The notes below the pieces were generated by a model, which was given only the letters and a program-made list of their open reading frames with translations, made no database searches and was not told the DNA's origin. A program made the translations under genes and the position numbers. Positions 3,514-19,884 of a DNA stretch of 30,071 nt are shown here, piece after piece (the first letter of the stretch is position 1; each line of letters starts with the position of its first letter). Origin of the DNA: a virus. The stretch lies in IMG/VR virus record IMGVR_UViG_3300007520_000004. The stretch is one strand, 5' to 3'.

Positions 3514-3567
3514 CAGAAGTATTAACCGTTAAGGGGGTTATTGAATAAAGATTTTTAGACCAACCTT

Positions 3568-3594
3568 AAAAAGTAGCCCTAACCTACTTTTTTT
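3568..3594 (+). terminator. AT-rich hairpin with U tract in the leader of the rightward operon
   Basis: AAAAAGTAG-ccctaac-CTACTTTTT followed by TT. The stem has only two G:C pairs and is symmetric, so it could act on either strand. Confidence 0.35.
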
Positions 3595-3621
3595 GGGAGG
3601 TCTTTTTTTATATAAACTATT

Positions 3622-4311
3622 ATGGCAGAGAAATTAAACAGCTATGAATTGAGCAGGTCATTTATAAACTTCGCTTTTGATAACCCTGAAAAGATAAACC
3701 CAAACCACTACGCTATTTATTTCTTTGCAATAGAACATTGTAACAGATTAGGGTGGAAAGATAAGTTTGGGTTTCCTACGATGATGGCTTGTGATGCAGT
3801 AGGCATAAAAAAGGCTCAGACATTTATAAAATACTTTAACGATTTAGAATATTGGGGATTTATAAAAGTAGTAGAAAGGTCAAGAAATCAATACTCTGCA
3901 AACATAATAAGCCTAATAAGTGCCGAACCGAAAAAAGGCGAAGCACTAGATAAAGCAATGGTCAACCACGCGGTAAAGCAATCGTTAAGCAATAGTCCTG
4001 TAGATAAACAAGTAAACAAAGAACAAGTAAACAAGTGTTTAGATAGATATAAAATATTCTTGTCTAAATGGAACGAAATAAAAAAGTCAAATTACAAGGG
4101 CAGTAAGAATGATGTAAATAATTTTATATTTTGGCTAGAAACATATACTCCTTCTGAAATACTAAAAGCAATAGAGAATCACGATAATACCTTTTGGGCT
4201 GAGAAGATAAACACTCAATGGCTTTTTAGAACTAAAGACACCAAAGGGCAACCAGTGGATTACATAGGGCAATTATTAGAACACGTAAACAGAAGCAAGC
4301 TGAGAGTATGA
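3622..4311 (+). CDS. Putative replication initiation / origin-binding protein
   Basis: First gene of the rightward operon, coupled to the helicase gene. The N-terminal region (YAIYFFAIEHCNRLGW..FGFPTMMACDAVGIKKAQTFIKYFNDLEYWGFIKV) looks like a winged-helix replication-protein N-terminus. The call rests on position and pattern only. Confidence 0.4.
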   Translation: MAEKLNSYELSRSFINFAFDNPEKINPNHYAIYFFAIEHCNRLGWKDKFGFPTMMACDAVGIKKAQTFIKYFNDLEYWGFIKVVERSRNQYSANIISLISAEPKKGEALDKAMVNHAVKQSLSNSPVDKQVNKEQVNKCLDRYKIFLSKWNEIKKSNYKGSKNDVNNFIFWLETYTPSEILKAIENHDNTFWAEKINTQWLFRTKDTKGQPVDYIGQLLEHVNRSKLRV

Positions 4312-5847: not shown

Positions 5848-6023
5848 AAGGACTATACGAGATAACCGCAACAAAAGGAGGTAAGAGTATTACCTCAGAA
5901 GTCTTTGGCAGTATGGCTAACAAAGAGCAATTATTCCAGCTTCTTATGAATCGACATAAGATACTTCATAGCGAAAGAATACTATGGAAAATGACAAGCA
6001 CTAATTTAATAAAACAAATATGA
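5844..6023 (+). CDS. Hypothetical 59-aa protein
   Basis: Hand translation: MKGLYEITATKGGKSITSEVFGSMANKEQLFQLLMNRHKILHSERILWKMTSTNLIKQI. ATGA overlaps at both ends. Confidence 0.4.
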   Translation: MKGLYEITATKGGKSITSEVFGSMANKEQLFQLLMNRHKILHSERILWKMTSTNLIKQI

Positions 6024-6232
6024 CTTCAAAGGAACAAGCCGAAGAATTGGTCAATGCTTATATAATAGTATTGATGGAGGAGGACACCGACGATTTACAT
6101 TGCTCTACTATTGCTAGGAGATGTGCGTTGATAGGTGTGAATGAAATATTAAACTTGTTTTACGACAAGAATGGTAATGATTATAGATATAACTTTTGGG
6201 AGGAAGTAGAGCAAGAGCTTGATAAGTTATAA
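6020..6232 (+). CDS. Hypothetical protein (70 aa)
   Basis: Coupled ORF with no assignable motif. Confidence 0.55.
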   Translation: MTSKEQAEELVNAYIIVLMEEDTDDLHCSTIARRCALIGVNEILNLFYDKNGNDYRYNFWEEVEQELDKL

Positions 6233-6360
6233 TGCAAGAGTTAAATGAGTTACAAAAGGAGCTCGAGTCATTAAGCCCCTCTTGGAATCTATTTGGAAAG
6301 GTAGATAGAATGAAATTATTAGTAGAGCAATTGAAATTTAAATTAAATAAAAATGAGTAA
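6232..6360 (+). CDS. Hypothetical 42-aa protein
   Basis: Hand translation: MQELNELQKELESLSPSWNLFGKVDRMKLLVEQLKFKLNKNE. TAATG start overlap, and the stop overlaps the next gene. Confidence 0.35.
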   Translation: MQELNELQKELESLSPSWNLFGKVDRMKLLVEQLKFKLNKNE

Positions 6361-6619
6361 CGAAAAAAAAGAAAAAGTATTCGCAGAAGGGTTTATGTTC
6401 AAGATGAAGCCCGACTCTCCCGAGTGGGTAATCGGTAGCCTAAGTCTAAAGTCTGAGGATGCGATTAAGTTTATTAACGAGCACACCGACAAGGGTTGGC
6501 TTAATCTAAACGTCAATGTTGGCAAGAGTGGCAAGCCTTATGTAGAGCTAAACCAATGGAAGCCAAGTCAAGATAAGGTAACGCAAAACGCTACCGAGCC
6601 AGACGGACTTCCTTTTTGA
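6353..6619 (+). CDS. Putative ssDNA-binding-like protein with an SSB-type C-terminal tip
   Basis: 88 aa in the replication module. The C-terminus ..ATEPDGLPF resembles the acidic ..DDDIPF tip of bacterial SSB. The fold is not verifiable by eye. Confidence 0.4.
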   Translation: MSNEKKEKVFAEGFMFKMKPDSPEWVIGSLSLKSEDAIKFINEHTDKGWLNLNVNVGKSGKPYVELNQWKPSQDKVTQNATEPDGLPF

Positions 6620-7968
6620 ATTTAGAGGATATTTATTTTGACAAGGGCATCCGAGAATATGCTTTGAAGCTGACCTCTGATAAAGACGAAGCTGAGGATT
6701 TAGTCTCTATTGCCTTTGAAATTTGCCTAAGCAAAAAGCCAGTCGATAACCTCGCTGGCTATTTTGCTATGGTAATGCGAAACCAATGGTTTAAAAAGAT
6801 AAACACCAAAGACCCGTACTTTGACAACGAAAGCAACGAGCATCCCGAAGTGGAGGAGGTGCTTAGTAGAATGGGACACTACCACTCTAATATACTAAAG
6901 GCGGTTTACAACGGAAACAATCTCACACAGATACATAAAGGGGCATCAATAGGATATAGAACCCTTAAAAGCGACTACAAAAAAGCTAAAAAAGAATTTA
7001 AAATTATGTATGAAAACAATATTAAGATAGCTATAATAGTCCGCAGTATTAGCGGAGTGGCTTACCATAGATTAATAATGCCAATGGCTAAGATGAGCAG
7101 AGACTATGGCATCGAGGTTGTTTGCTTGCTAAACAAGGAGGACGAGTTCTTTGAAAATCTGCAAGGGGTTACCCACGTAATTTACAACCGCAATATCTCG
7201 GGTCTAATGAAGCCAGAGGAGTCCTATATGAAACTTAAAGCAAAAGGCATCAAGGTTATTTGCGACATAGATGATTATTGGATACTACCCAAGAGCCACC
7301 CAATGAAGCACTATTACAGTAAAAGCAACCTTGACAAGTGTATAGTTAAAAACCTACAATTAGCGGACGTGGTATGGACTACTACCAAGCTATTGGCTGA
7401 TAAGATAATGCCATATAACAAGAATGTAGAAGTAATCAAGAATGCTTTAGACCCTATGGAAAAACAATTTGCCTACGAGGACCTAAGTATTAACTTCGAT
7501 ACCTTCTTCTATTCAGGCGGCAGCACACATATAAGAGACTTAAAGTTATTAGGCAACGCATTTGAGAATGAGAAGCTAATAATCAAAGCCCCGACGATAC
7601 CCAAGAGGATGATAGCAATTAAAAGACAGTTGAGCGAAGTCCAAGACTATGCTAAGGACTATGAACATTGTGGTATATGCGTGATACCATTGAAGGAAAA
7701 TACATTCAATAGCTGCAAGTCTGAGCTTAAAATGATAGAAGCTGGACACTTTGCAAAGCCAGTTATAGTAAGTGCCGTCGACCCTTATAATTTGCTCTCA
7801 ACAAATAAAAACTCATTAAAGGTATATAATAATGAATGGGCATCAGCAATAAAGAAAATCAAAGGCAATCATATTATGCAAGTTGAACTTGGTTTAAAGC
7901 TAAAAGAGGACGTGATGTTGAAGCACGATTTAACGAAAGAGAACGAAAAGAGATTACAAACATTATGA
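6616..7968 (+). CDS. Sigma-70/ECF-like N-terminal domain fused in frame to a GT-B-like glycosyltransferase
   Basis: The first ~130 aa carry a region-2-like segment (DEAEDLVSIAFEICLSKKP..LAGYFAMVMRNQWFKK) and a region-4-like HTH (NNLTQIHKGASIGYRTLKSDYKKAKKEF). The rest carries KIAIIVRSISGVAYHRLIMP, ICDIDDYW, FFYSGGSTHIRD and SELKMIEAGHFAKPVIVS (GT1/GT-B-like). TTG start overlaps the upstream stop. An in-frame ATG lies at 7006. Confidence 0.5.
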   Translation: MNLEDIYFDKGIREYALKLTSDKDEAEDLVSIAFEICLSKKPVDNLAGYFAMVMRNQWFKKINTKDPYFDNESNEHPEVEEVLSRMGHYHSNILKAVYNGNNLTQIHKGASIGYRTLKSDYKKAKKEFKIMYENNIKIAIIVRSISGVAYHRLIMPMAKMSRDYGIEVVCLLNKEDEFFENLQGVTHVIYNRNISGLMKPEESYMKLKAKGIKVICDIDDYWILPKSHPMKHYYSKSNLDKCIVKNLQLADVVWTTTKLLADKIMPYNKNVEVIKNALDPMEKQFAYEDLSINFDTFFYSGGSTHIRDLKLLGNAFENEKLIIKAPTIPKRMIAIKRQLSEVQDYAKDYEHCGICVIPLKENTFNSCKSELKMIEAGHFAKPVIVSAVDPYNLLSTNKNSLKVYNNEWASAIKKIKGNHIMQVELGLKLKEDVMLKHDLTKENEKRLQTL

Positions 7969-8150
7969 CTAACGAACTAGAAGTAGAGGTAAGAGAGATG
8001 CATAAACAAAAGGGCGGTAGGCTTAGCAGAGAATTAAAGCCTGAGTTTATTAAGTTGTGTAGGGAGGACTTTAACGCTAACCCCGATATGGAATGTGGCA
8101 AGTGCATTTACAAGCACGTGATAAAACTTTACGATAAATATTTTAAATGA
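7965..8150 (+). CDS. Hypothetical protein (61 aa)
   Basis: ATGA-coupled on both sides, between the glycosyltransferase and the ParB-like gene. Confidence 0.5.
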   Translation: MTNELEVEVREMHKQKGGRLSRELKPEFIKLCREDFNANPDMECGKCIYKHVIKLYDKYFK

Positions 8151-8659
8151 TAAAGATAAAAGACATAAAGACCAACCCAAACAATCCCAGACTTATAAAG
8201 GATGAGAAGTTTGCAAAATTAGTCAAATCCATAAACGAGTTTCCTAAGATGATGGAGCTACGACCTTTAGTGGTTAATGCAGACAATATGATTATAGGCG
8301 GAAATATGCGTTTTAAGGCAATTAAAGAGCTTGGGTATACTACCATACCAAAAGAATGGGTAAAGCGAGCAGACGGGCTTACAGAGGGCGAGACAAGGCG
8401 ATTCATCATAGCGGACAACGTAGGCTTTGGAGAACACGATTGGGATATGCTGGCGAATGACTTTGATGTAAAGGAATTAGAAGATTGGGGTCTTGATGGT
8501 TTTCCGTTTGAAAATGTGGCAGACGAGCCTAAGGACTTGTCTGACGACTTAAGAGAAACCTTCGAGGTTATAATAGAATGCACCTCAGAAAGAGAGCAAG
8601 AGCAAGTGTTTAATAGTATGATAAAAGATGGATACAAATGCCGAGTTTTAACATTATAA
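8147..8659 (+). CDS. ParB/Srx N-terminal-domain (ParB-like nuclease domain) protein
   Basis: DIKTNPNNPRLI, RPLVVNADNMIIGGNMRFKAIKELG, RRFIIADNVGFGEHDWDML: the ParB-N pattern typical of the phage/plasmid type that is often fused to DNA methylases. Confidence 0.75.
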   Translation: MIKIKDIKTNPNNPRLIKDEKFAKLVKSINEFPKMMELRPLVVNADNMIIGGNMRFKAIKELGYTTIPKEWVKRADGLTEGETRRFIIADNVGFGEHDWDMLANDFDVKELEDWGLDGFPFENVADEPKDLSDDLRETFEVIIECTSEREQEQVFNSMIKDGYKCRVLTL

Positions 8660-9339
8660 AAGAAAGTAATCCGACAGAGACTTATAGGGTCTCAAGTGTT
8701 TTGAATATGTTTGATTTAGATATTTCTAAAATAAAAGAACATTTCGAGGGGAATATAGACATAGAAGGTAAAGACTGGAATGTAGGTTTAATAGTTGGGG
8801 GGTCTGGAACGGGAAAATCTACGATAGCAAAAGAAGTCTTTGGCGAAAATTACTTTACTGAAAACATCTACGAGTCCGAAACGGTTATAGACGATATGCC
8901 ACAGGAAAAGAGCGTAAAAGAAATAACAAAAACATTTACAAGCGTAGGTTTTGCATCTCCACCAAGTTGGTTAAAACCTTATAGCGTTTTATCTAATGGC
9001 GAAAAAATGAGGGTGGATTTAGCAAATTGTATTTTGCAGGAAAAAGAAATAATTGTATTTGATGAATTTACAAGCGTAGTTAATCGAGAGGTCGCAAAGA
9101 CTGGCAGCTTTGCAATATCAAAGGCAGTAAAAAAACTAAATAAGAAATTCATAGCAGTAGCGTGTCATTCCGATATTATAGAATGGCTTGAGCCTGATTG
9201 GATTTATAACACTGATGAACAGAGGTTTTTTTTTGCCCTAAAAAATACAAAAGACCAGCTATGGAACTTCAAATCTTTAGGATTGGGAATGAGAATAAAA
9301 AACGAGTTTGGGAAGTATTCAGGAAGTATCACTATCTAA
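8638..9339 (+). CDS. Soluble ABC-type ATPase (single nucleotide-binding domain, no membrane domain)
   Basis: Walker A GGSGTGKST, signature-like LSNGEKMR, Walker B IIVFDEFTS, H-loop ACHSD. The 3' end contains an in-phase T9 run (FFF). Confidence 0.7.
   Translation: MPSFNIIKESNPTETYRVSSVLNMFDLDISKIKEHFEGNIDIEGKDWNVGLIVGGSGTGKSTIAKEVFGENYFTENIYESETVIDDMPQEKSVKEITKTFTSVGFASPPSWLKPYSVLSNGEKMRVDLANCILQEKEIIVFDEFTSVVNREVAKTGSFAISKAVKKLNKKFIAVACHSDIIEWLEPDWIYNTDEQRFFFALKNTKDQLWNFKSLGLGMRIKNEFGKYSGSITI
9226..9234 (+). other. T9 run / U UUU UUU slippery site at the ATPase-GNAT junction
   Basis: TTT TTT TTT lies in phase with 8638..9339. The -1 frame opens at 9219 and is continuous with the GNAT ORF. 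Confidence 0.5.
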
Positions 9340-9755
9340 ATACAAATTTACACCCAGCAGCAGAACAATGGATTGGATTAATTAACGGTGAATTGGCTTG
9401 TCATACTGGTATTATTCAGTTTCCAATGCGTAAAGGGTGGAAGCGTGTTCATAGAATGGTTGTGCTACCAGATTACCAAGGTATCGGGATAGGAACGGCT
9501 TTTGAAAATTACACAAGCCAATACTATGCAGATTTAGGATGGAATGTAAATGTAACAACAACAACGCCAGCGTTAGTCCATTCATTATGTAGGTCGAAAA
9601 AATGGAGTTTAGTAAGGGCAAATAGGGTTAAAACAACTTGGGCTAATTTTAAAAAATATAATACAGATGTAGGCAAAGGGAGTAAATCAATGGAAGCTCT
9701 AGCAAAAAATAGCAGTATTAACAGAATAACCTACTCCTTTAATTTTATTAAATAA
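9261..9755 (+). CDS. GNAT-family acyltransferase
   Basis: RMVVLPDYQGIGIGTAF is the GNAT motif A (Q/RxxGxG/A). Overlaps the ATPase ORF by 79 nt in the -1 frame. Confidence 0.7.
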   Translation: MELQIFRIGNENKKRVWEVFRKYHYLNTNLHPAAEQWIGLINGELACHTGIIQFPMRKGWKRVHRMVVLPDYQGIGIGTAFENYTSQYYADLGWNVNVTTTTPALVHSLCRSKKWSLVRANRVKTTWANFKKYNTDVGKGSKSMEALAKNSSINRITYSFNFIK

Positions 9756-9774
9756 TACAGAACGTTTACAGAAC
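9756..9774 (+). repeat. Tandem 8-bp repeat TACAGAAC-gtt-TACAGAAC upstream of terS
   Basis: Read directly in the 26-nt intergenic gap before 9782. Confidence 0.6.
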
Positions 9775-9781
9775 AAACACA

Positions 9782-10144
9782 ATGAGTAAAGAGGACTTAA
9801 TACCATTCAAGAAAGGCGAGAGCGGAAACCCTAACGGCAGACCTAAAGGCGTGCCTAATTCTAAGACTAGGCTACTACGGTTATTAGAGATTACTCAGAA
9901 CGTTAAGAACCCTATCACTGGCGAGCTCGAGGACTTCTCTATTGCTGAGCGTATGGACTTGGCTATATTAAACAAAGCACTCAAAGGAGACATAAGAGCG
10001 TATCAGGAGTTAATGGATAGACTAGAGGGCAAGGCAAGACAAACTACAGACGTTAATCAGGAGATAGTCTACAAATCTTTAGATATTAATATAATAGACA
10101 CGGGCGTACCATTTGCTGATAACGAGAAAGGAATAGTTGATTAA
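9782..10144 (+). CDS. Putative terminase small subunit
   Basis: N-terminal KKGESGNPNGRPKGVPN motif, common in small-terminase-like (DUF5681-type) proteins. Lies immediately upstream of and overlapping terL. Confidence 0.5.
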   Translation: MSKEDLIPFKKGESGNPNGRPKGVPNSKTRLLRLLEITQNVKNPITGELEDFSIAERMDLAILNKALKGDIRAYQELMDRLEGKARQTTDVNQEIVYKSLDINIIDTGVPFADNEKGIVD

Positions 10145-11294
10145 GACTGGTGGGCTATATCGCTTAAACTATAACTCAACCGCTGACATAGTAGTCAATC
10201 AAGGAGGGACAAGTTCTGGAAAAACTTACGCTATCCTCCAAGTTCTATTCAGCCTTGCTATAAATTCAGAATGTACTACCACCGTAGTAGGTCAGGATAT
10301 ACCCAATCTAAAGGTAGGAGCGTTAAGGGATGCCTTAGACATCATTAATGCAGACGAAGCTATCAGGCAGCAGTTAGTGTTTTACAATCGTTCTGAGAGG
10401 GTGCTAAGTTTTCGCAATGGTTCAATCATAGAGTTTAATAGCTATGACAACGAGCAAGATGCTAAGTCGGGTAAGCGAGACTACTTGTTTATAAACGAAG
10501 CCAACGGCATACCCTACAACGTATTCGAGCAACTATCTTTGAGGACTAGAAAGAAAGTGTTTATAGACTACAATCCAGATACTAGCTTTTGGGTACACGA
10601 CAAAGTAATACCGTTAGAAACTACGGAGCTGATAATATCAGACCATAGACATAACCCATTCTTAACTGATAAGACTAGGGCGAAGATTGAAGGGCTGAAA
10701 GATAAGGACCTTGACTTGTGGAAGGTATACGCTCGTGGTATCACTGGACGTATAGAGGGCTTAGTATTAAAGAAATGGTATACTACCACAGAGAGCTTTG
10801 ATGATAAGGAGTTAATCGGCTACGGGATTGACTTCGGATTCACCAACGACCCTACCGCAATGGTAGAAGTAAGGATGCAAGACGGGGAGCTATGGATTAA
10901 AGAGATTATATACGAGACGGGATTAACTAACCAAGATATAAGCAGCAGAATGGAAGTCTTAGATATAAGCAAGGGTACACTTATTGTAGCTGATAGTGCA
11001 GAGCCTAAGAGCATAGAAGAACTTAGACGGCTTCGCTGGACGGTAGACGGTGTAAAGAAAGGAAAGGATAGCGTTATGTTTGGGATTAATCTATTGAAGG
11101 GTTACATTATAAACGTAGACGCTAAGAGTAAGAATTTAATAAAAGAACTTGAGCAGTATCGCTGGAAGGTAGACAAGAATGGAGACGGTCTAAACGTCCC
11201 TATTGACACCTACAACCACGCAATAGATGCTCTTAGATATTTAGTGATGCACAAATTTAGTAAAAAAGGATACGGAAAATATTATGTTATATGA
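10137..11294 (+). CDS. terL: Terminase large subunit (PBSX / Terminase_3-like)
   Basis: Walker A-like GGTSSGKTYAIL, Walker B-like DYLFINEA, and nuclease-domain patterns YGIDFGFTNDPTAMV and DTYNHAIDALRY. TTG start. Confidence 0.85.
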   Translation: MIKTGGLYRLNYNSTADIVVNQGGTSSGKTYAILQVLFSLAINSECTTTVVGQDIPNLKVGALRDALDIINADEAIRQQLVFYNRSERVLSFRNGSIIEFNSYDNEQDAKSGKRDYLFINEANGIPYNVFEQLSLRTRKKVFIDYNPDTSFWVHDKVIPLETTELIISDHRHNPFLTDKTRAKIEGLKDKDLDLWKVYARGITGRIEGLVLKKWYTTTESFDDKELIGYGIDFGFTNDPTAMVEVRMQDGELWIKEIIYETGLTNQDISSRMEVLDISKGTLIVADSAEPKSIEELRRLRWTVDGVKKGKDSVMFGINLLKGYIINVDAKSKNLIKELEQYRWKVDKNGDGLNVPIDTYNHAIDALRYLVMHKFSKKGYGKYYVI

Positions 11295-11868
11295 TTTAAC
11301 AGTTGGTCAATACCAGCTACTTAACGAGATAGACGAGGAGCTATCAATGATTGAGCAGAACATCTATGCAGTGTCTGCAATAAAGGGTATAACCTACGAA
11401 GAAGCTAGCAGGATAAAGATGACGGAGTTCAGCAAGCTCATAGAAGGTATAAGCGAGTTTAACATTAAGCTACTTGAAAAGCTAAGGATAAACAATTCTA
11501 TTGTCTTAAACGGTGTTAAATACCACGTAGAGCACAAGCCTGACAAACTAAGCAGTGGGCAACTGTTAGACGTTCTAAACATACGGAGCAAGAATCAAGG
11601 CAAAGCCGTAGAGGTTATGGATTTGCTATTGGCTGCTATGGCTAGACCTAAAGGCAAAGAGTATGGAGACGATGGCTTGAATATAAATGAGAGAGCCGCG
11701 TTGATTAGAGATGCTAAACTTTCAGAGGTTTGGAATGTGTTTGTTTTTTTTTGGAATCTTTGGAACAACTACTTCAACGATTCAGAGGACTCTTTAACAA
11801 AGTGGATGGAGGAGACTCCGAAGAAAGTGCAGGAGATTTTGGACAACGATGGGGATTATTCAGCATAA
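11284..11868 (+). CDS. Hypothetical virion-assembly protein; 0-frame product of a candidate G/GT-type frameshift pair
   Basis: 194 aa. Contains a T9 run at 11744..11752, with a -1 frame open from 11718 to 11993. Confidence 0.45.
   Translation: MLYDLTVGQYQLLNEIDEELSMIEQNIYAVSAIKGITYEEASRIKMTEFSKLIEGISEFNIKLLEKLRINNSIVLNGVKYHVEHKPDKLSSGQLLDVLNIRSKNQGKAVEVMDLLLAAMARPKGKEYGDDGLNINERAALIRDAKLSEVWNVFVFFWNLWNNYFNDSEDSLTKWMEETPKKVQEILDNDGDYSA
11744..11752 (+). other. T9 run / U UUU UUU slippery site
   Basis: Codons GTT TTT TTT TGG (..VFFW..) in the 11284 frame. The heptamer T TTT TTT lies at 11745..11751. Confidence 0.5.
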
Positions 11869-18747: not shown

Positions 18748-19884
18748 GTGGACTTGCCTTTAATTGAATTCAAACTTAGCGATGATGTCGAAGGACTGCA
18801 AGCTATTGCTTTCGTAGATACTCCAGCCATTGGCTTGAACTACCAAGCGTTTGCAAATCAAAAGTTTGAAATTATCAACGAGGACAAGAGAATAGTAATG
18901 GGTGCAGCAATGATACCCGACTTACCTATTTATCGTAGAGACGAACGTGGTGAGTACTATGCAATCTTTAAAAAGGACACTATCAAAGCACTCGTGCAAA
19001 AGCTATTTAAGGAGAATAAGCATAATAACTTTAACGAGCAACACAACGCATTTAAGATACTTGATGGCGTTTATATCTACCAATCATTCATAACAGATGC
19101 AGAACTAGGCATATCAGCCCCAACGGGCTTTGAGAACGTAGCAGACGGCACGTGGTTCATAGCCGCAAAAGTAGAGAATGATGAAGCGTGGGAGAAGGTC
19201 AAGAAAGACGGTATATTAAAGGGCTTTAGTGTTGAGGGTGTGTTTGACTTAGAGCCGTATAAATTTAAAAAAATGAATAAAATAAACTTAGAAAACGTAA
19301 TCAATACGTTGAAATCTGTGTTCGCAGATACTGAGGATGTAGTAGTCGAAGAAACTTTCGGTGAAGCTACCTTAGTAGACGGGACAATCGTAAAATGGGA
19401 AGGCGAGCTTGTAGAAGGTGCTGCCCTTATAGTAGTACTACCTGAGGGTGAAGTAGCGGCTCCCGATGGGATACACGAACTAGAAGACGGTACTATACTA
19501 GAGACTGCTGGCGGTCTTGTAGTAAGTATCCAAGCAATAGGCGAGGAGGTTATAGTAGAAGATAACGAGTTCACTACTGAAATGCTAGATACTTTAATCG
19601 AGAAGGCTATGGCTAAGTATGCAGAAGCGTTTACTGCTTCTTTGGATTTAGTACGTTCAGAGAATGAGGGTCTGAAATTAGAATTAGCTTCTATTTCTGC
19701 CGCTAAGGACGAAATGAAAAAGGAGTTTACTGCCACTCTAAACAAGGTGGGTGTAGAGTTGGAGGAGATTGCTAAGACAGAAGTGTCTACCGCGTCTAAG
19801 CCGCAAGAGTTTAAAGCAACCACAAGAGCTGAAAAGGCTGCTAGAATGGGAGCAATTATTAGAGCAAATAAAATAAATAAATAA
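18748..19884 (+). CDS. Prohead protease (XkdF-like) fused to a scaffold-like coiled-coil C-terminus
   Basis: N-terminal half: AIAFVDTPAIG, IVMGAAMIPDLPIYRRDE.GEYY, FNEQHN, WFIAAKVENDEAWEKVKKDGILKGFSVEG (XkdF-type pattern). Acidic/helical C-terminal half. Immediately upstream of the capsid gene. GTG start. Confidence 0.55.
   Translation: MDLPLIEFKLSDDVEGLQAIAFVDTPAIGLNYQAFANQKFEIINEDKRIVMGAAMIPDLPIYRRDERGEYYAIFKKDTIKALVQKLFKENKHNNFNEQHNAFKILDGVYIYQSFITDAELGISAPTGFENVADGTWFIAAKVENDEAWEKVKKDGILKGFSVEGVFDLEPYKFKKMNKINLENVINTLKSVFADTEDVVVEETFGEATLVDGTIVKWEGELVEGAALIVVLPEGEVAAPDGIHELEDGTILETAGGLVVSIQAIGEEVIVEDNEFTTEMLDTLIEKAMAKYAEAFTASLDLVRSENEGLKLELASISAAKDEMKKEFTATLNKVGVELEEIAKTEVSTASKPQEFKATTRAEKAARMGAIIRANKINK

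Follow-up and report, generated by a model that had tools for sequence, protein, structure and literature searches.

In TmcA/NAT10 an NTPase module works together with a GNAT, which acylates a nucleobase, and the Mom protein of phage Mu, which is late-expressed and tightly dosed, uses a GNAT fold to modify adenine in DNA. A family of GNATs coupled to ABC ATPases has been predicted to acylate DNA nucleobases, with Tenacibaculum phage pT24 as the example, in Iyer et al. (Viruses 2021, PMC7824862), which traces the prediction to Iyer, Zhang, Burroughs and Aravind (NAR 41:7635, 2013). A survey of phages and prophages describes ParB N-terminal domains (ParB-N) fused to N6/N4 DNA methyltransferases (PNAS 2025, PMC12704722), and a ParB protein, ParB176, is the obligatory activator of the post-replicative thymine dioxygenase 5mYOX176 on double-stranded DNA (O'Toole et al., PNAS 2026, PMC13229309); according to the same paper, glycosyltransferases, ParB proteins and terminases are found along with thymine dioxygenase clusters. 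Recoding of genes by -1 frameshifting or slippage is known from cassettes that include dnaX tau/gamma, lambda G/GT, OrfA/OrfAB of insertion sequences, and mxiE and spa13 of Shigella (reviewed in PMC5009743).

We analyzed a window of 30,071 nt, the whole of the stretch taken from IMG/VR virus record IMGVR_UViG_3300007520_000004, in which genes for a ParB-like protein, an ABC-type ATPase and a GNAT lie directly upstream of terminase genes (Table 1). The original prediction described three coupled open reading frames, with the GNAT running from an ATG at 9261 to 9755, that close an operon beginning at 6616. All three frames exist in the window, the motifs quoted for them (for example DIKTNPNNPR, GGSGTGKST, LSNGEKMR, IIVFDEFTS and ACHSD) are all found in their translations, and the start-to-stop overlaps between genes from 6616 onward are real. 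The operon, by contrast, does not close at the GNAT as had been proposed: a TerS-like ORF follows 27 nt further on, on the same strand, and no terminator-like site was found between the two. This DUF5681 ORF occupies the same position as the annotated TerS genes of phages P335 and Pmp13. The upstream glycosyltransferase was considered as a member of the module and rejected, having no homologue in the first 76 related loci. No other base-modification genes were seen in the window, and megablast of positions 6000-11300 against isolated phages gave no match.

Table 1. Features of the ParB/ABC-GNAT module and its neighbors, in positions of the window.
Feature	Position	Strand	Basis or remark
Glycosyltransferase with extra N-terminal domain	6616..7968	+	phrog_7162, 1e-45
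ParB/Srx-type N-terminal domain protein, 170 aa	8147..8659	+	Pfam ParB_N, 9e-7
Overlap of ParB stop and ATPase start, 22 nt	8638..8659	+	-21 offset recurring in relatives
Soluble ABC-type ATPase, 0 frame, 233 aa	8638..9339	+	phrog_11143 positions 5-192, 1e-59
T9 run, -1 frame-change site	9226..9234	+	U UUU UUU heptamer in phase
Second slippery heptamer, A AAA AAT	9240..9246	+	in phase, 5 nt past the T run
Linker and GNAT acyltransferase domain, -1 frame, 173 aa	9234..9755	+	phrog_11143 positions 204-349
ABC-GNAT transframe protein, 372 aa	8638..9234 joined to 9234..9755	+	predicted from comparison
DUF5681 protein, probable small terminase subunit	9782..10144	+	Pfam DUF5681, 6e-15
Large terminase subunit	10137..11294	+	Terminase_3C 5e-20, Terminase_3 9e-11

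Comparison with relatives revised the gene count. Pfam recognizes ABC_tran in the window ATPase (39.7 bits against a cut-off of 25, 9e-10) and Acetyltransf_1 in the GNAT (23.6 bits against a cut-off of 20.7), and both halves are covered by the single profile phrog_11143 (357 positions), so that ATPase and GNAT belong to one protein family. We therefore describe the supposed trio of genes, in which ATPase and GNAT had been counted separately, as two: ParB and one frameshifted ABC-GNAT gene. The JGI/COG name for the family is 'ABC-type ATPase with predicted acetyltransferase domain'. Homologues of the fusion number more than 5600, are mostly 350-385 aa long and carry PF00005 together with PF00583; at E<=1e-30 they form 519 clusters at 50% identity, and relatives occur in at least 592 species genomes. 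An N-terminal extension of 200-250 aa is present in about 11 of the top 150 clusters.

Aligning 80 homologues revealed invariant residues in both halves: K60 of Walker A, S119/G121 of the signature, D142-E143 of Walker B and H177 of the H-loop in the ATPase, and in the GNAT the acyl-CoA motif Q-G-x-G-x-G along with W225, H232, Y233 and R273. The invariant columns of these homologues do not include a Gln located between Walker A and the signature. Since the acyl-CoA motif is invariant, catalysis appears to be the selected function. AlphaFold2 modeled the whole fusion with a pLDDT of 86.5 and the GNAT domain alone, a generic GNAT fold, with 87.2. With intact ATPase and acyl-CoA motifs and confident models, the fusion is predicted to be an active enzyme. 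Its GNAT half is strikingly basic (pI 10.1, net charge +18 in the window; median pI 10.05, net charge +17 across the 80 homologues).

Structure and profile searches placed both halves in broad superfamilies. By Foldseek the ATPase fold matches ABC nucleotide-binding domains (NBDs), and the full model returned generic NBDs from the PDB with no substrate clue; searching PDB chains with the fusion sequence likewise yielded generic ABC NBDs only. The GNAT-only model matched generic GNATs (RimI, SpeG, GCN5 and others) at a TM of about 0.6, and a GNAT-domain profile gave no significant GNAT matches among PDB chains, with NAT10 chains at E 0.07-0.3 over about 28 aligned residues. In BFVD the one full-length match is a protein of Leptospira phage LE4, annotated only as a putative GNAT. 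Thus no profile or fold search assigned the ATPase or the GNAT to a characterized family with a target other than nucleic acid, an outcome that would have counted against the original prediction. Several family memberships were considered and rejected. TmcA/NAT10 produced no Pfam match at E<=0.1 and is absent from the top 50 fold matches; the GNAT part has no Mom-family match in Pfam or PHROG; and an ABC transporter is contradicted by neighbors that are ParB, TerS and TerL, with no permease, both in the window and in annotated phages. All NCBIfam transporter models score the window ATPase far below their own cut-offs.

The two halves of the window protein are joined across a change of frame. 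In the 0 frame the T9 run reads as three TTT Phe codons, the last seven T's forming the heptamer, and the GNAT frame opens at 9219, 7 nt before the run. Homology to GNATs begins at 9234 and not at the ATG at 9261, whose counterpart is ATC or ATT in most relatives. Beyond the run, the last ~35 residues of the 0-frame ORF are out-of-frame GNAT codons ending in ...SITI*, the stop falling within the codons of the invariant KYHYL motif. Among related loci, 35-36 are split in this manner and 121 encode the protein in frame, with the junction at the same linker; in the split loci the same -1 change falls within a narrow window of 115-133 nt, and a consistent +1 change was never found among 35 of them. 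The slippery motif varies between split lineages (T9, T7, T6C, A9 and AAAGGGC), and 33 of 35 split loci have an X XXY YYZ heptamer in phase, as compared to 9 of 121 in-frame loci. The T9 run itself is invariant in 19 distinct loci, though the preceding 288 nt are only 60-94% identical; in a codon-usage test, TTC made up 23% of Phe codons elsewhere in the ORFs of T9 loci. The second heptamer, A AAA AAT, is possibly an auxiliary shift site; it occurs in the window and in loci L007, L011 and L031 only and is not conserved within the clade. No conserved downstream stimulatory RNA structure was found in the T9 loci, where folds are weak and non-conserved, and a GGGG-N11-CCCC hairpin (-12 kcal/mol, 7-8 nt past the site) is confined to L013 and L016, which are T6C and T7 loci. 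Because the fusion occupies one frame in many relatives, recoding appears to be lineage-specific rather than ancestral.

Could the split be an artefact or a sign of decay? Homopolymer runs are error-prone, and two close relatives have other tract lengths (L162 reads T10 and is in frame, L027 reads T8), so the true sequence might be T10 or the gene a pseudogene; alternatively, the GNAT might be made independently from its own ATG, which in the window lies 27 nt past the T run. The comparative data speak strongly against each of these options. Because 35 loci share the -1 architecture with differing motifs, across many independent assemblies and finished genomes, comparison of the sequences indicates that the split is not a sequencing error. 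Finished genomes include ones from Streptococcus, Lactococcus and Alicyclobacillus, and those of Streptococcus phage 315.4, Lactococcus phage P335 and an Oenococcus phage all have the split at this position. Moreover, the short form of 231-233 aa recurs in 28 protein clusters at 75-95% identity drawn from JGI, ENA, NCBI and Logan, and T9 is kept while flanking codons vary. As for a free-standing GNAT, most relatives lack a start codon for a complete domain, their first one in the GNAT frame lying 114-192 nt past the run. We thus consider artefact, decay or an independent GNAT highly improbable. Phase variation of the T tract also seems unlikely, given that T9 is overwhelmingly observed and that other lineages use heptamers that are not homopolymers. 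That the gene is a single recoded ABC-GNAT fusion is the part of our explanation in which we place strong confidence.

The first gene of the module encodes a ParB-like protein that scores 29.3 bits with Pfam ParB_N (cut-off 26.3) and contains motifs of the ParB box I and box II type, NPNNPR and GGNMRFKA; the consensus among its relatives is N.R.H and GH.R..A. A basic N-domain is followed by a very acidic C-terminal part and a conserved tail, ...CR.LTL, at the end. Its best PHROG is phrog_498, 'DNA methyltransferase' (2e-24), and its PADLOC match is MTase_II (4e-9), in both cases through the N-terminal part of the methylase profile, which bears out the earlier proposal that this is the kind of ParB domain found in fusions with phage DNA methylases. 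A canonical partition ParB was rejected: TIGR00180 gives 19.9 bits against a cut-off of 58.45, and the protein has only 170 aa and an acidic C-terminal part. Pfam and PHROG profiles detected no ParA-like gene in the neighborhood within the window.

Searching for recurrence of the ParB-ABC-GNAT neighborhood found the arrangement in about 160 loci from many phyla, which is far beyond chance. By a ParB HMM built from length-limited seeds, at least 67 of 95 non-redundant loci have a ParB homologue immediately before the ATPase, while a detectable ParB is absent from about 30% of loci. In 47 non-redundant loci, ranging from archaeal MAGs to Firmicutes phages, the ParB gene ends exactly 21 nt into the ATPase ORF; the resulting 22-nt overlap is likely to reflect translational coupling. 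In loci L064 and P0189 the ParB is fused to the ATPase, so the association of ParB, ATPase and GNAT that had been noticed in the window is conserved across relatives and sometimes takes the form of one polypeptide. Downstream, a TerL-like ORF is found in at least 45 of 80 non-redundant loci, and 6 of 10 further loci sampled have a TerL of the GpA or TerL_ATPase type; altogether the module adjoins at least three TerL families (Terminase_3/6, TerL_ATPase and GpA). In one large clade, which lacks ParB, the gene is located within the replication region and 4-5 kb away from the terminase; its neighbors in ParB-less clades include DNA methylases of the C5 and N6/N4 types. Well-studied carriers of the module include Lactococcus phage P335 and S. 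pyogenes 315.4/phiNIH1.1, and further cultivable carriers are Pasteurella phage Pmp13 and Leptospira phage LE3/LE4. In public records its parts are labeled 'ABC transporter', 'iron siderophore transporter', 'hypothetical protein' or 'methyltransferase', a systematic mis-annotation that the present analysis corrects.

An ASCH-domain gene comes directly after the GNAT in phages of Streptococcus and Oenococcus, an adjacency present in 3 of 102 non-redundant loci; the connection of ASCH to N4-acetylcytosine is a weak lead.

We propose that the locus is a two-gene late module. Its first product would be an NTP-binding protein of the ParB/Srx type and its second would combine a soluble ABC ATPase with a highly basic GNAT acyltransferase in one protein, which in this lineage would be made at full length only upon a -1 shift at the T9 run, with the ribosome slipping on U UUU UUU or RNA polymerase inserting an additional U. 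One gene would then yield two products, the ATPase alone and the ATPase-GNAT. By analogy with the phage thymine dioxygenase, and presumably with the fused methylases, ParB may recruit or activate the enzyme on double-stranded DNA, where ATP-driven dimerization of the ABC domains would clamp the substrate and, shortly ahead of packaging, the GNAT would move an acyl group from acyl-CoA onto an exocyclic amine in one of the DNA bases. The acyl mark would shield the progeny genome against host nucleases. The frameshift might keep the catalytic form, which could be toxic, at a low level or fix the ratio of short to long subunits in an ABC dimer. A DNA-directed enzyme is suggested because the ParB is of the methylase-fusion type, the GNAT is basic, ParB-less members lie beside DNA methylases, a phage ParB activates a DNA base modifier, and the published ABC-GNAT prediction points the same way. 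Against it we count that no structural or sequence match links the GNAT to a nucleic-acid substrate, as well as the loci without a detectable ParB and the lack of further base-modification genes in the window. ATP-dependent acyl modification of DNA fits this evidence; here as in the literature, the function is a prediction. Taken as a whole, recoded fusion and ParB-assisted DNA acylation together, the proposal seems to us evenly balanced between right and wrong. We advance only tentatively, with doubt somewhat outweighing belief, the fuller version in which an acyl mark such as N4-acyl-cytosine or N6-acyl-adenine is laid down near packaging, ParB serves as activator or loader on double-stranded DNA, ABC dimerization allows the base to be reached, and -1 frameshifting sets the catalytic amount or ratio in several lineages.

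Other substrates and roles would accommodate parts of these data. The ABC-GNAT could acetylate a protein, whether a DNA-bound host protein, a host defense protein or a phage packaging protein, with ParB only localizing it on DNA. The closest structural matches include enzymes that acetylate proteins (RimI, HP0935, GCN5/PCAF and NAA50/60), and a place at the start of the late operon would also be compatible with an anti-defense or host-takeover gene. AcrVA5, a GNAT anti-CRISPR, acetylates a host defense protein. Phage GNATs that act on host proteins are exemplified by Rac of phiKMV-like phages, as cited in PMC7824862. We nevertheless regard a protein substrate as unlikely: a net charge of +17 on a GNAT of 170 residues, found for all 80 homologues, is unusual for GNATs that act on proteins or small molecules and suits a polyanion as substrate, the ParB partner has the domain type seen in methylase fusions, ParB-less members are found among DNA methylases, and PADLOC returned only weak, unspecific matches in the ABC region of the fusion. 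Acetylation of RNA, for instance of tRNA cytidine in the manner of TmcA/NAT10 with an ABC ATPase replacing the helicase module, would explain the shared logic of ATPase plus GNAT and the basic charge, and it could draw on the ASCH-domain genes next to the GNAT, since ASCH proteins act as N4-acetylcytidine amidohydrolases or erase ac4C from tRNA (PMC6972931; bioRxiv 10.64898/2026.02.27.708502). This too we find improbable, as sequence and fold show no relation to TmcA/NAT10 beyond the generic GNAT motif A, the ASCH adjacency is rare, and the conserved partners, ParB and terminase, are both DNA-centered. A final option makes the module an accessory of packaging, in which ParB (as a nuclease or NTPase) and an ABC clamp aid the terminase at the packaging site and the GNAT is regulatory; the module does lie immediately upstream of TerS/TerL in most loci. 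HNH proteins at the same position are known packaging helpers. Its association with unrelated terminase families argues, however, against a specific physical partnership; the large ParB-less clade has the gene 4-5 kb from the terminase, most phages with these terminases lack the module, and the invariant acyl-CoA motif indicates that catalysis is selected, all of which leaves a packaging role with little probability.

If our proposal of DNA acylation by a recoded enzyme is true, the module would bring both a recoded gene of a new class and a new way of modifying DNA enzymatically, in thousands of phages that include S. pyogenes prophages and lactococcal phages of dairies, and acyl-type, ATP-dependent chemistry would join the known phage DNA modifications, with consequences for restriction evasion, for nanopore and SMRT base-calling of phage DNA, and for enzyme tools. 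The combination is not, as the original prediction had it, undescribed, for both the ABC-GNAT family and DNA acylation had already been predicted by Aravind's group. What comparative analysis appears to add is the conserved -1 recoding of the catalytic fusion in several lineages and the tight tie of the module to ParB and terminase genes. A full-text literature search found no dedicated study of COG2401 or of ParB, GNAT, ABC and terminase together; the literature searched, which lay outside Iyer et al. 2013 and Krishnan et al. 2020, contains no description of the conserved frameshift, of the fixed 21-nt overlap between ParB and ATPase or of the terminase-proximal position, and those two papers may mention the ParB link.

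Set against the systems introduced at the outset, the locus shares individual features with several. TmcA/NAT10 and Mom are working analogies and not family, with no match beyond the generic GNAT core, and the window ATPase is of the ABC type where that of TmcA/NAT10 is a helicase. ParB-methylase genes often adjoin terminase genes. They are phage-borne, as is the window ParB, which finds its best match in their N-terminal part (phrog_498); the window partner is, however, a predicted ATP-dependent acyl-CoA transferase and not a SAM methylase, and ParB of the window type is usually a separate, translationally coupled gene and not a fusion. ParB176 is likewise a short ParB without an obvious DNA-binding domain encoded beside a DNA-modifying enzyme, but that enzyme is an Fe/2OG dioxygenase, for which ParB dependence is known, and here it is an ABC-GNAT. 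Like the established recoding cassettes, the gene has an in-phase X XXY YYZ heptamer or a long homopolymer at a domain boundary and a predicted short 0-frame and longer transframe product, kept across diverged relatives; it differs in that its T9 form lacks a conserved stimulatory structure and its recoding is lineage-specific, and, in the literature searched, ABC-GNAT is a new gene class for recoding. The ABC-GNAT family of Iyer and colleagues has the same pair of domains in the same order, phrog_11143 covering both halves of the window protein, and a predicted function that coincides with the one in the original prediction. The fusion aligns with Tenacibaculum phage pT24 by tblastn at 35.5% identity over residues 14-316 (E 2e-43). 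What sets the window apart is the conserved -1 frameshift site that interrupts its fusion.

The window is a tailed-phage genome of roughly 30 kb with a minus-strand early arm (exonuclease/Erf/RusA), and besides this encodes a primase-helicase, the ParB/ABC/GNAT module and structural genes including a portal. The nearest relatives of its terminase are from Bacteroidota phages (about 40% identity), and we found no isolated phage close to it at the DNA level. The three ORFs of the original prediction, with every motif quoted for them, are all present on the + strand. The prediction also had these genes closing an operon; we found no terminator-like site between the GNAT ORF and the terminase genes that follow 27 nt downstream, and the module genes therefore do not close it. 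The upstream glycosyltransferase gene is not conserved with the module in related loci; it has an extra N-terminal domain of ~135 aa, weakly sigma-70 region 2/ECF-like at sub-threshold scores (Pfam E 0.06; NCBIfam E 0.009). The ORF before a capsid-like gene matches a head-maturation protease as well as the C-terminal part of phrog_1530 'DNA methyltransferase' (1e-13), a label that probably reflects a mislabelled profile and not a methylase.

Features of the window and of homologous loci (L-numbers)
Feature	Sequence	Position	Strand	Detail
Glycosyltransferase, upstream of module	window	6616-7968	+	450 aa; phrog_7162, 1e-45
ParB_N ORF	window	8147..8659	+	170 aa; Pfam 9e-7, above curated cut-off
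ABC_tran ORF	window	8638..9339	+	233 aa; Pfam 9e-10, above curated cut-off
Nine-T run	window	9226-9234		ATPase/GNAT junction
Acetyltransf_1 (GNAT) ORF	window	9261..9755	+	164 aa; Pfam 6.5e-5, above curated cut-off
Embedded 0-frame stop	window	9325-9339		equivalent position in all split loci
DUF5681 protein, likely small terminase	window	9782..10144	+	Pfam
Large terminase	window	10137..11294	+	Pfam
ORF before capsid-like gene	window	18748-19884
T10 tract	L162 (Logan contig, protein P0001)	766-775
T8 tract	L027	6589-6596
Hairpin	L013	2922-2960
Hairpin	L016	5472-5510
pT24 homologue	L164 (NC_049383.1)	3541-4113		in-frame stop mid-GNAT
ParB/Srx + ABC ATPase pair, without GNAT	L163 (Acinetobacter plasmid NZ_CP033863.1)	954-2679
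ASCH-domain gene	L077	6131-6508
ASCH-domain gene	L078	5117-5485
ASCH-domain gene	L080	5097-5531

ParB, ATPase and GNAT, predicted as a trio, are all real, but they make up two genes, since PHROG 11143 (357 positions, function unknown) spans the last two: its positions 5-192 cover the ATPase ORF and 204-349 the GNAT ORF. At the junction, the T run reads Phe-Phe-Phe in the ATPase frame, while the -1 frame, open in the window only from 9219, runs on as CPKKYKRPAMELQ... into the GNAT. With the reconstructed 372-aa fusion as query we found >5600 homologues, mostly single proteins of 350-385 aa carrying both Pfam domains, some of them named "ABC-type ATPase with predicted acetyltransferase domain" by JGI. 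At 75-95% identity, the nearest relatives fall into 28 clusters with lengths of 231-233 aa, the truncated ATPase form found in the window, and originate from JGI, ENA, NCBI and Logan assemblies. One homologue (P0196, 715 aa) holds an intein (Hint + LAGLIDADG homing endonuclease) inside its ATPase domain. These comparisons indicate that ATPase and GNAT are one gene, and that the module consists of two genes, one of them recoded.

We compared the junction in 76 viral-metagenome, 80 species-genome and annotated phage loci. Of these ~160 loci, 121 carry the fusion in a single frame and 35 change frame by -1, always at the same point in the linker; a further 3 look like +1 shifts, probably through assembly noise (one, L027, has T8). 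An in-phase X XXY YYZ heptamer marks the junction in 33/35 split loci, as compared to 9/121 in-frame loci. In the window clade, T9 is invariant in 19 distinct loci although the 288 nt ahead of it share only 60-94% identity (median 70%); the three junction Phe codons are always TTT, whereas TTC makes up 23% of the remaining Phe codons in the ORFs; and the GNAT frame opens 7-16 nt ahead of the run. Elsewhere the junction motif is T7 (L016; a Eubacteriales MAG, L090; the complete Alicyclobacillus sp. ALC3 genome, L093; a Lachnospiraceae MAG, L124), T6C (L013), A9 (L103), A AAG GGC (Oenococcus phage Vinitor-27) or the non-canonical GTT TTT C.. / CCC CAC (Streptococcus phages 315.4 and MismyG; Lactococcus phage P335). 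The GNAT frame itself has, in most relatives, no start codon until 114-192 nt past the run, beyond the invariant residues W225, H232 and Y233, so that no complete GNAT can be made independently. Taken together, these alignments argue that a conserved recoding signal, and not an error, underlies the split; an artefact is very unlikely.

The short product ends in ...(I/T)I*, ~35 residues past the shift site (SITI* in the window, NIII* in Firmicutes loci). In split loci the 0-frame stop always lies ~100 nt downstream of the shift site because it is embedded in the codons of an invariant KYHYL motif (..AT CAT TAT YTA A); the short form thus owes its constant length to these codons, and that length need not itself be selected. 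A 78%-identical relative (L162) has T10, with ATPase and GNAT in frame; given this tract and the T8 of L027, tract length is not absolutely fixed, and such variants could be assembly errors, natural polymorphism or phase variation. With regard to mechanism, a GGGG-N11-CCCC hairpin of about -12 kcal/mol lies 7-8 nt downstream of the site in L013 and L016, and no stable downstream hairpin was found in T9 loci. This pattern hints that the short heptamers act through ribosomal frameshifting, and T9 through slippage of RNA polymerase.

The ParB-ABC-GNAT neighbourhood recurs: of 95 non-redundant loci with sufficient flanking sequence, at least 67 have a ParB-like ORF directly upstream. In 47 of these, which range from methanogen MAGs through Planctomycetota to Firmicutes phages, the ParB stop falls exactly 21 nt into the ATPase ORF, the offset seen in the window; in L064 and protein P0189 the ParB domain is fused to the ATPase, and some 11 of the best 150 clusters at 50% identity have an N-terminal extension of 200-250 aa. 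Downstream, at least 45/80 loci have a large terminase, for the most part 250-1100 nt beyond the GNAT, a gap with room for a TerS gene; in 6/10 further sampled loci the TerL is of the GpA or TerL_ATPase type. Annotated phages keep this order: ArpU ... ParB, "ABC transporter", "hypothetical", ASCH, TerS?, TerL, portal in S. pyogenes phage 315.4; Alt, Orf23-25, Orf26, TerS, TerL in Lactococcus phage P335; and Q, lysis, ParB, a fused 366-aa protein, TerS, TerL in Pasteurella phage Pmp13. In a ParB-less clade, the in-frame gene sits in the replication region, adjoining C5 and N6/N4 DNA methylases. A distant ParB-ABC pair without GNAT recurs on 112 Acinetobacter plasmids, many ~100-110 kb, followed by a thioredoxin-family gene; ParB-ABC may thus be the older unit, recruiting different effector domains.

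Across 80 homologues, the ABC ATP-binding and hydrolysis motifs and the GNAT acyl-CoA motif Q-G-x-G-x-G are all invariant. AlphaFold2 modelled the fusion confidently (pLDDT 86.5, pTM 0.78), and the GNAT alone at pLDDT 87.2. The nearest folds are generic ABC nucleotide-binding domains and generic GNATs; a specific relation of the GNAT to TmcA/NAT10, Elp3 or Mom was not found by Pfam, profile or fold search. The GNAT half is markedly basic (80 sequences: median pI 10.05, minimum 9.55, net charge +17) and the ATPase half acidic. The ParB domain is, as predicted, of the methylase-fusion type, best matching phage DNA-methyltransferase profiles over their N-terminal part (phrog_498, 2e-24; PADLOC MTase_II, 4e-9); NCBIfam profile comparison rejected a partition ParB. 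It retains the box I/box II arginines (NPNNPR, GGNMRFKA), and, aligned to residues quoted in the literature, has Asn in place of the Gln and Glu of CS-ParB that are implicated in CTP hydrolysis.

Public phage records misannotate the module systematically (315.4, phiNIH1.1, Javan phages, P335, Vinitor-27): the ATPase half is labelled 'ABC iron siderophore transporter', the GNAT tail 'hypothetical protein' and cut back to its first ATG, and the ParB gene 'DNA modification methylase' or 'type II adenine-specific methyltransferase'. The homologue in Tenacibaculum phage pT24, annotated as two 'ABC transporter ATP-binding' CDS, has an in-frame stop (...WNGVPV*INVISPLP...) that may mark a pseudogene or a stop codon that is read through, or else be a sequencing error.

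How might the module act? The ParB and ABC-GNAT genes are coupled at the head of the late operon, and since their place in annotated phages is after the late regulators (ArpU, Alt, Q), they would be expressed late. Some ribosomes or transcripts would shift -1 at the T run, yielding ATPase-GNAT beside ATPase alone; ABC domains, by a property of the fold, dimerise on ATP, so that homo- and heterodimers with two, one or no GNAT domains would be possible. By analogy with ParB176 and the ParB-methylase fusions (see below), ParB may bring the enzyme to dsDNA or activate it there, and the basic GNAT would use acyl-CoA to acylate a base just ahead of packaging. Mu mom is under multilayer control that limits its toxic activity, and the frameshift could, by analogy, serve a similar dosage role. 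That the enzyme instead acetylates protein is unlikely, and a role as a packaging accessory more doubtful still. Acetylation of RNA is equally improbable, its sole support being an ASCH-domain gene adjacent in 3/102 loci, directly after the GNAT in Streptococcus/Oenococcus phages. ASCH proteins are N4-acetylcytidine amidohydrolases or erasers (PMC6972931; bioRxiv 10.64898/2026.02.27.708502), a hint that the chemistry may, in these lineages, involve N4-acyl-cytosine.

DNA acylation by this combination is not new as an idea, contrary to the original prediction: Iyer et al. (PMC7824862) describe an ABC-ATPase-coupled GNAT family with predicted DNA-base acylation, crediting the prediction to Iyer et al. 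2013 (NAR 41:7635) and naming pT24. Since pT24 carries a homologue of the window protein, the hypothesis is a published, computational prediction; ATP-dependent DNA acylation is reasonable and matches it, and the locus belongs to this predicted, uncharacterised ABC-GNAT kind. To it we add conserved -1 recoding across lineages, measured ParB/terminase linkage and tractable isolates in which to test the prediction. In the literature found, with the earlier family papers (2013, 2020) outside its coverage, neither the frameshift nor the fixed overlap of ParB and ATPase was described, and no experimental function was reported. For ParB, experiments show that a post-replicative thymine dioxygenase needs a short phage ParB-like protein, ParB176, on dsDNA (O'Toole et al. 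2026, PMC13229309), in clusters found together with glycosyltransferases (31%), ParB proteins (27%) and terminases (19%); a 2025 survey (PMC12704722) reports phage ParB folds fused to N6/N4 methylases, and a bacterial ParB-acetyltransferase fusion that binds GTP. For the split loci, precedent comes from dnaX, lambda G/GT, IS elements and Shigella mxiE/spa13, where one gene gives two products by either mechanism (PMC5009743).
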